In this document: in pieces, positions 18,201 through 20,100 of the stretch | Numbering within the stretch: the first letter of the stretch is position 1 | Layout: every line of letters starts with the position of its first letter | Assembly (NCBI GenBank): GCA_025057405.1 | Contig: JANWXV010000001.1 | Location: 1 to 24,153, forward strand | Direction of reading: 5' to 3' | Source of the DNA: Candidatus Bipolaricaulota bacterium | GTDB lineage: Bacteria > Bipolaricaulota > Bipolaricaulia > RBG-16-55-9 > DRXL01 | DNA: 24,153 nucleotides | The notes under the pieces: generated by a model | The model's input: the letters and a program-made list of their open reading frames with translations, nothing else | Told to the model about the DNA's origin: nothing | The model's database searches: none | Made by a program: the position numbers and the translations under genes

Positions 18201-18995
18201 ATGATTCGTCTGAAGTCCAAAGAAGAGATTGCGATCCTGCGCGAGAACGCCGAGCTGCTTCAGGCGATTCTCTTGCGCTTGACCGAGGAGGCCCGTCCCG
18301 GCGTAGCCACGCTGGAGCTGGATCGCAAGGCCGAGCGCTGGATCGCCGAGATCGGCGGGCGCCCGACGTTCAAGGGCTATCGGGGGTATCCCGCGACGAT
18401 CTGTACATCGCTGAACGCCGAGGTCGTCCACGGGATTCCCAGCGCGCAGCGCCTCTTGAAATCCGGCGATGTTCTCTCTATAGATATAGGAATGATGCGC
18501 AAAGGGTTCTGTGCTGATTTGGCGACTACTGTCTTGATCGGCGATAGCCCGGAGTATGTATATCAGCGTCGGGTGATGCAGCGAGCGGCCGAAGCGCTGC
18601 AGATCGGGATCGAGCAAGCGCGAGCGGGCCAGCGCGTGGGAGATATCTCCAGCGCCATTCAGAGATATATTAACAGTTACGGACTCTCGGTGGTCACGAA
18701 CTTTGTGGGGCACGGCATCGGGCGCGAGATGCACGAAGAACCCCAAGTGCCCAACTACGGGACGGCTGGACAAGGCCCGTTGCTCAAAGAGGGCATGGTG
18801 CTCTGTATCGAACCGATGGTCGCCGACGGCCCCAGCGATCTGTTAGAGATCGAGGTGCTCGAGGACGGCTGGACGGCTCTGGCACCGGGAGCGCGCGTTG
18901 CCGCGCATTATGAAGCGATGGTCTTGGTCACTGCCGAGCCTATCGTTTTGGGTATAGGACTGTTTGAGCCTCAGGCGGCTCTGGTAGCGAGGTGA
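18201..18995 (+). CDS. map: Methionine aminopeptidase type I
   Basis: [27 protein letters not shown] and AHYE metal-ligand motifs. Confidence 0.97.
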
Positions 18996-19002
18996 GGTCT
19001 CT

Positions 19003-19224
19003 ATCAGCAAGGGTGAATTCATTCGCCGGCGGGGGAAGGTACTCGAAGCGTACCCCAACTCGATGTTCAAAGTGAAGCTGGAGGACGGCGGCGAGACGCT
19101 CTGTCACATTTCGGGGCGGATTCGCAAGAATTATATTAAGATTCTGCCCGGCGACACCGTCACGGTGGAGTTTTCGCCCTACGATCTGGAGCACGGACGG
19201 ATTATCTACCGGGAGCGCGAGTAA
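19003..19224 (+). CDS. infA: Translation initiation factor IF-1 with apparent non-canonical ATC start (73 aa)
   Basis: Translation is (I/M)[72 protein letters not shown]. There is an in-frame TAG at 18985-87 and SD GAGGTGA at 18989-95. The gene is absent from the ORF track. Confidence 0.95.
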
Positions 19225-19239
19225 AAGAGGTGTCACGCT

Positions 19240-19356
19240 ATGAAAGTGCGTAGTTCTGTGAGAAAGATGTGCGAGTCGTGCAAGATCGTGCGTCGCCACG
19301 GTCGTATCTTGGTGATTTGCAAGAACCCTAAGCACAAACAGCGTCAGGGGACGTAA
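19240..19356 (+). CDS. rpmJ: 50S ribosomal protein bL36 (Zn-type)
   Basis: [38 protein letters not shown], 38 aa. Confidence 0.98.
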
Positions 19357-19761: not shown

Positions 19762-20100
19762 ATGAGAAAGATTGACCGCGCGAGATTGCACGTGCACTCG
19801 ACGTTCAACAACACGATCTTGACTTTAACGGATTTGGAAGGGCGCGTTTTGGCCTGGGCCAGTCCGGGCACCCGCGGCTTTAAGGGCAGCAAGAAGGGCA
19901 CGCCCTACGCGGCGCAGTTGGCGTGCGAGACGCTGCTGGCCAAGATGAAGGAGATGGGGATTCGCTCGTTGATCGTCACGGTGAACGGAGCCGGCCAAGG
20001 CCGAAACGCCATTGTGAACACGCTCCGAGGCGCGGGAATACGCGTGGAAGATGTCAAGAACGTTACTCCGGTGAGCCACAGCAGCAGCAAGCTGATCTGA
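19762..20100 (+). CDS. rpsK: 30S ribosomal protein uS11, short (112 aa) with divergent C-terminus
   Basis: AGGAG SD at 19750-54. HSTFNNTI and GFKGSKKGTPYAAQ motifs. The protein ends NVTPVSHSSSKLI. Confidence 0.97.
   Translation: MRKIDRARLHVHSTFNNTILTLTDLEGRVLAWASPGTRGFKGSKKGTPYAAQLACETLLAKMKEMGIRSLIVTVNGAGQGRNAIVNTLRGAGIRVEDVKNVTPVSHSSSKLI

Follow-up and report, generated by a model that had tools for sequence, protein, structure and literature searches.

The gene for initiation factor IF1 (infA) in the genome of an uncultured Bipolaricaulota bacterium studied here probably begins at an ATC codon, at position 19003 of the window. This start is strongly supported, namely by its conservation among relatives, by flanking stop codons, by the codon periodicity of the frame, by orthologous canonical starts and by the finding of no other IF1 gene in the genus. 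An ATY codon (ATC or ATT) occupies the aligned position in every one of the clade's 23 genomes, and conservation to this extent is far beyond chance. We give even chances to the joint proposal that ATC 19003 is the genuine start of the genome's only IF1 gene and that IF1 output would be lowered by it, coupled inversely to IF3/IF1 activity and adjusted together with infC, the gene for IF3.

The genome and its relatives

The window, by which we mean the whole stretch of 24,153 nucleotides that was analysed, is contig C111 of the metagenome-assembled genome G000 (Candidatus Bipolaricaulota/Acetothermia), a 924-kb assembly in 217 contigs that is 75% complete. Among named organisms the closest are 'Candidatus Acetothermia bacterium NSHQ14B.2017.Bin6', with 97% identity in IF1, and MAGs of Candidatus Bipolaricaulota; the sequencing runs that contain this stretch are hot-spring metagenomes. 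Genomes are labeled G###, loci L###, GTDB families f# and genera g#; genus g1 includes G000, G001 and G002, the latter two with a completeness of 93%. The 5' end of infA was read in the slot adk-map-infA-rpmJ-rpsM in 35 genomes of the order, of which 26 have the gene in that slot. Entropy was calculated by alignment column on an alignment of 22 genomes (A1).

Only one assembler contig, X1, crosses the infA start free of errors, and it probably derives from the same source sample as the window. An RNA-library contig (X3) belongs to a relative that is ~88% identical and is no proof of transcription. The 3' end of the 16S rRNA, with the anti-Shine-Dalgarno sequence, lies outside the G000 assembly.

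The infA locus and its predicted start

The features of the locus, in positions of the window, are as follows.

18201..18995, forward strand: map (methionine aminopeptidase), from the ORF list; its stop codon, TGA 18993-95, is part of the infA Shine-Dalgarno region.
18985..18987, forward strand: TAG in frame with infA, which bounds that frame on its upstream side, read from the sequence.
18989..18998, forward strand: Shine-Dalgarno (SD) region GAGGTGAGGT, with GAGGTGA at 18989-95, 7 nt before ATC, and a second GAGGT at 18994-98, 4 nt before.
19003..19005, forward strand: putative ATC start codon of infA, assigned from clade conservation, alignment to Met1 and the NCBI proteins of relatives, which begin there.
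19003..19224, forward strand: predicted coding sequence of infA, with 73 codons and the stop TAA (19222-24), from the TIGR00008 match; the ORF 19003-19221 encodes 73 aa.
19063..19065, forward strand: internal ATG (Met21, codon 21), judged not to be the start; it is substituted in seven relatives, and periodicity is already present at codons 2-7.
19240..19356, forward strand: rpmJ (L36), the next gene, with an ATG start and GAGGTG 7 nt upstream.

Between the in-frame TAG and ATC 19003 lie the codons CGA GGT GAG GTC TCT, none of the five a canonical start, and the first ATG, GTG or TTG in the frame is ATG 19063. A preliminary description of this DNA, made from its letters, had reported this TAG, this first canonical codon, a product of 73 aa and a T at position -1 of the ATC, and every one of these coordinates is correct. 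It had also placed the GAGGTGA motif with the map stop at normal spacing, which agrees with the 7 nt that separate it from ATC.

The predicted product matches the IF1 profile TIGR00008 with 102.3 bits (cut-off 61.15) over profile positions 2-68 of 69, and PF01176 is found on the database copy of the window's IF1. As aligned by phmmer, residues 3-72 correspond to residues 3-72 of E. coli IF1 (9fco_I) and residues 2-71 to residues 2-71 of 2n8n_A. Because this alignment with solved IF1 structures is collinear, ATC 19003 corresponds to the canonical Met1, as had been suggested. A 53-aa product begun at ATG 19063 would miss profile positions 1-18; the preliminary description had put the loss at 20 residues, the first OB-fold strand among them.

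Three further codons were considered as starts and rejected: GTC 18997 is not conserved, ATT 19021 (Ile7) lies 25 nt from the SD, and Val13 is encoded by GTA here and varies synonymously among relatives. No promoter or terminator of its own was found around infA, and RNA structure near the start showed nothing significant (z-score 0.2).

Conservation of the ATY codon

The gene order adk-map-infA-rpmJ-rpsM is present in 30 of 30 related loci (L001-L030), and the preliminary description's suggestion that related genomes might share a non-AUG start is borne out in this slot. The aligned start codon is ATT in 13 and ATC in 10 of the 23 clade genomes. These carriers make up 23 of the 26 genomes of the order that have the slot gene, and comprise all 17 of family f1 and all six of f3. 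In a five-protein tree they form one clade (SH-aLRT 98), sister to f4, so a single origin of the ATY start suffices.

Column entropies place the beginning of the reading frame at the same codon. Across codons 2-61 the entropies at the three codon positions are 0.33/0.22/1.12, and codons 2-7 are already periodic (0.35/0.23/1.03), whereas no periodicity is seen upstream of ATY (1.55/1.55/1.39). The SD block is conserved, with a mean entropy of 0.72 in the 22 aligned genomes, in contrast to the variable 7-nt spacer (1.43). In each of the 23 genomes GAGGTGA, GGAGGGG or GGAGGTG stands 5-7 nt before ATY. Stops in the infA frame fall one or two codons before ATY in three loci (TAG in L015, TGA in L006 and L017), and the internal ATG gives way to ACC or ACG in the six genomes of f3, and to TGC in G004. 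The third base of the start has changed between T and C several times within the clade and is never G or A in the 23 genomes, where synonymous sites are otherwise highly variable. ATY is found both with the map stop 7 nt upstream (g1, g2) and with that stop ~20 to >60 nt upstream (g3, f3).

infA starts outside the clade

In family f9 (L161-L173), TTG stands exactly at the codon aligned to ATC 19003 in 12 of 13 loci, across the sampled genera, and GTG in the remaining one. Of the two f11 loci, one has its GTG at the aligned position and the other an ATG or GTG a few codons upstream, which is also where f7, f8 and f10 have an ATG or GTG. An environmental relative of lower G+C and 79% IF1 identity (L184, position 1201 of a Logan contig from ERR14790956) carries ATG at the aligned codon and no SD, the reverse of the pairing of ATY with a strong SD.

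In the sister family f4, in-frame GTG codons lie five codons (L020) and one codon (L021) upstream of the aligned start. In L023 (G020), where the map ORF extends over the infA start, neither ATG, GTG, TTG nor ATY is present at the expected position, and no more than a GTC stands at SD spacing, 6 nt after GGAGG.

Loci from other phyla have canonical infA starts in 73 of 74 cases. At L045 (CAIXNQ010000085, ~1497), in an 'uncultured Bacteroidetes' MAG, a stop lies one codon upstream of a CTG that follows GGAGGT by 5 nt, and the conserved internal Met is not preceded by any canonical start; this may be a CTG start in another lineage.

Other initiation-factor genes

Within g1 (G000, G001 and G002), no sequence other than the slot infA reaches the cut-off of the IF1 profile. 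Elsewhere in the order there is a paralogue, here called type-B IF1, which is ~50% identical, scores 87 bits against TIGR00008 and lies outside the ribosomal-protein cluster. In the neighboring genus g2 the type-B gene starts with ATA in six of six loci (L141-L146, at ~1498 of each, from genomes G003, G005, G008, G011, G012 and G010). This ATA follows AAGGAGG or GGGAGGG by 6-7 nt, and the stretch from the SD to the conserved N-terminus contains no canonical start at any of the six loci. The orthologous codon is ATG in g3 (L147) and ATG, GTG or TTG in f3. The slot infA has been lost in f2, f5 and part of f3, where map abuts rpmJ (L188-L192, from G022, G021, G030, G024 and G018); the only IF1 of these genomes is a type-B-like gene elsewhere, with a canonical start.

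The gene for IF3 has a similar arrangement in the lineage. infC (L111-L140) starts with ATC in 29 of the 30 relatives read, which span the class, 5-7 nt after AGGAGG or GGAGG, and with ATA in L121; in the 75%-complete G000 infC was not found, and this result rests on the relatives. The ATC start of infC also occurs in families whose infA start is canonical. infB (IF2) of G000 (C158:3577) starts with TTG, 7 nt after GGAGGAG.

Start-codon use within the genome

In the long ORFs of G000, SD-preceded codons upstream of any canonical start amount to 10/992 for ATC and 1/621 for ATT, against 1.25% for all codons. No genome-wide enrichment of ATY starts was found in G000 by this test, which is low-powered for a handful of genes. 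In the window's ribosomal-protein cluster, an ATG or GTG follows the preceding in-frame stop by no more than a few codons in nearly all genes. The tRNAs of G000 include a single, normal initiator with the anticodon CAU and an ordinary tRNA(Ile) with GAU. No GAU tRNA resembling an initiator was found among them, and an unusual initiator tRNA that reads AUY was rejected on this basis.

Ribosomal protein uS11 (rpsK, window 19762-20100) ends in ...TPVSHSSSKLI, without the basic tail that usually forms its C-terminus. This truncated end (TPVSHS followed by 0-8 residues) is present in 29 of 29 relatives checked, from f1, f3, f4, f7, f8 and f10. Since it is also found in families with canonical infA, it is a lineage-wide trait that does not track the ATY start.

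A possible link between IF1 output and start-codon stringency

If infA is translated from AUC, its initiator tRNA(CAU) would read that codon with a third-position mismatch, by inference from work in E. coli, and IF3, helped by IF1, would destabilise the 30S complexes formed on AUY. IF1 synthesis would thereby be reduced and would depend inversely on free IF3/IF1 activity. The preliminary description had stated that IF3 rejects non-canonical starts and that IF1 supports it in this, and a published study says the same: discrimination of non-AUG starts is ascribed to IF3 'with the support of IF1', and the AUU or AUC start of infC is the target of IF3 autoregulation (PMC5499595). In the same study, a synthetic E. 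coli AUU-infA mRNA was translated less well, and excess IF3 cut its activity by about half to >60%. When all three initiation factors were added, non-AUG mRNAs were not repressed further, and no IF1-specific effect is documented there (PMC5499595).

Because the lineage's infC also has ATC behind a strong SD, both factors would be co-adjusted. infA and infC would then respond together through one sensor, with IF3 as its main component and IF1 as a contributor. Judged from E. coli, joint regulation of IF1 and IF3 fits better than IF1 autoregulation, and an IF1-specific autoregulatory effect is plausible. More tentatively, and with some doubt on our side, one could imagine an initiation-factor fidelity regulon in this clade. 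In it infA (AUY), type-B IF1 (AUA) in genomes that have it, and infC (AUC) would all be translated inversely to IF3/IF1 proofreading, IF1 would help to repress itself, and the IF1:IF3 stoichiometry would be set via the shared sensor.

The main rival of the feedback reading is a plain throttle, in which AUY is a real start that sets a low fixed rate, leaving IF1 under-produced relative to its ribosomal-protein neighbors and without meaningful feedback. IF1 is needed well below one per ribosome, and no promoter or terminator of its own was found for infA. Most infA starts in the phylum are weak (TTG in f9, GTG in f8 and f11), infB is also TTG-started, and the ATG without SD of L184, set against ATY with a strong SD, looks like level tuning. 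However, any AUY start is IF3-sensitive in E. coli (PMC5499595), so some IF3 dependence would be hard to avoid, and the finding of AUH starts on infC as well as on the two IF1 paralogues suggests more than level-setting. We consider a throttle without feedback rather unlikely, and yet, as far as sequence data can speak to the question, they fit feedback and fixed rate equally well.

Other accounts would leave the codon with little or no role. In g1 and g2, where the GAGGTGA that stands 7 nt before ATY contains the TGA of map, ribosomes that end at this stop might re-initiate 7 nt further on, the codon being near-neutral and ATY a tolerated drift. ATY is kept to the same degree, though, in g3 and f3, with a map stop ~20 to >60 nt away, which argues against tight termination-reinitiation as the cause of tolerance; the restriction of the third base to T or C among such variable synonymous sites also speaks against drift, and we think coupling of this kind improbable. 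It is more improbable still that start fidelity is relaxed throughout the lineage and AUY an ordinary start in the phylum. The phylum-wide absence of the uS11 tail suggests that the ribosomal platform near the IF3 site may differ, but uS11 is changed in families with canonical infA as well, ATC and ATT are not enriched as SD-preceded starts in G000, and in the ribosomal-protein cluster an ATG or GTG is close by for nearly every gene. Scarcely credible, finally, is an artefact, whether position 19005 was misread, ATG 19063 serves as the start or the copy is not translated, even though Prodigal-type callers give products of 51-61 aa or 80-90 aa in relatives. A misread base, which the preliminary description had itself raised, is excluded by the 22 other genomes with ATY; the internal ATG is missing from seven genomes, stops lie directly upstream in three, and purifying selection is evident from codon 2. 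Nor was an ATG-start infA paralogue, the other doubt raised at the outset, or any other IF1 gene found in the genus.

Comparison with known systems

No paper describing a natural AUY-start infA was found in the literature searches. The preliminary description's impression of novelty should nevertheless be toned down, since NCBI already calls ATY starts for MCS6936738.1 (73 aa, MGKGEF...), for MCX8103591.1 (71 aa) and for the 73-aa product of the window. Logan and JGI gene calls of infA are shortened or extended, and Prodigal-type mis-calls (51-61 or 80-90 aa) can skew work on Bipolaricaulota that relies on marker genes or estimates completeness.

Binns and Masters reportedly found, in 2002, that the output of E. 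coli pcnB is limited by its AUU start. Like the infA described here, pcnB is a non-IF3 gene with AUU; unlike it, pcnB does not encode a translation factor and has no feedback logic.

The nearest report concerns the same gene with a natural weak start. Chloroplast infA has a functional UUG start, and its change to AUG strongly raised translation (Hirose et al., 1999, FEBS Lett, as cited in PMC9845219). UUG is canonical for IF3, however, and the setting is an organelle, whereas the AUC and AUU starts here are of the kind that IF3 discriminates against and belong to a free-living bacterial lineage. In E. coli extracts, AUU-infA mRNA competes less well with AUG mRNA, and an AUA version performs about as well as AUG in rich-medium extracts (PMC5499595). 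Those mRNAs were engineered, in contrast to the Bipolaricaulota codon, which is natural and conserved.

To our knowledge, infC is the textbook case, and almost the only well-understood one, of a gene controlled via a non-canonical start codon. Its autoregulation through AUU or AUC is known from E. coli and many other bacteria (Butler et al., 1987 and Brombach & Pon, 1987, both as cited in PMC9845219; PMC5499595). The infA described here resembles it in being an initiation-factor gene with a conserved AUY behind a strong SD, a layout repeated in the lineage's own infC. The two differ in that IF1 only assists discrimination, so that the loop would consist chiefly of IF3 acting on the gene of another factor, and in that this infA lies inside a ribosomal-protein operon and is known from its sequence. 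The occurrence of AUY on infA across two families, with infC alike, would suggest that the principle extends from IF3 to IF1, as a way to balance both.
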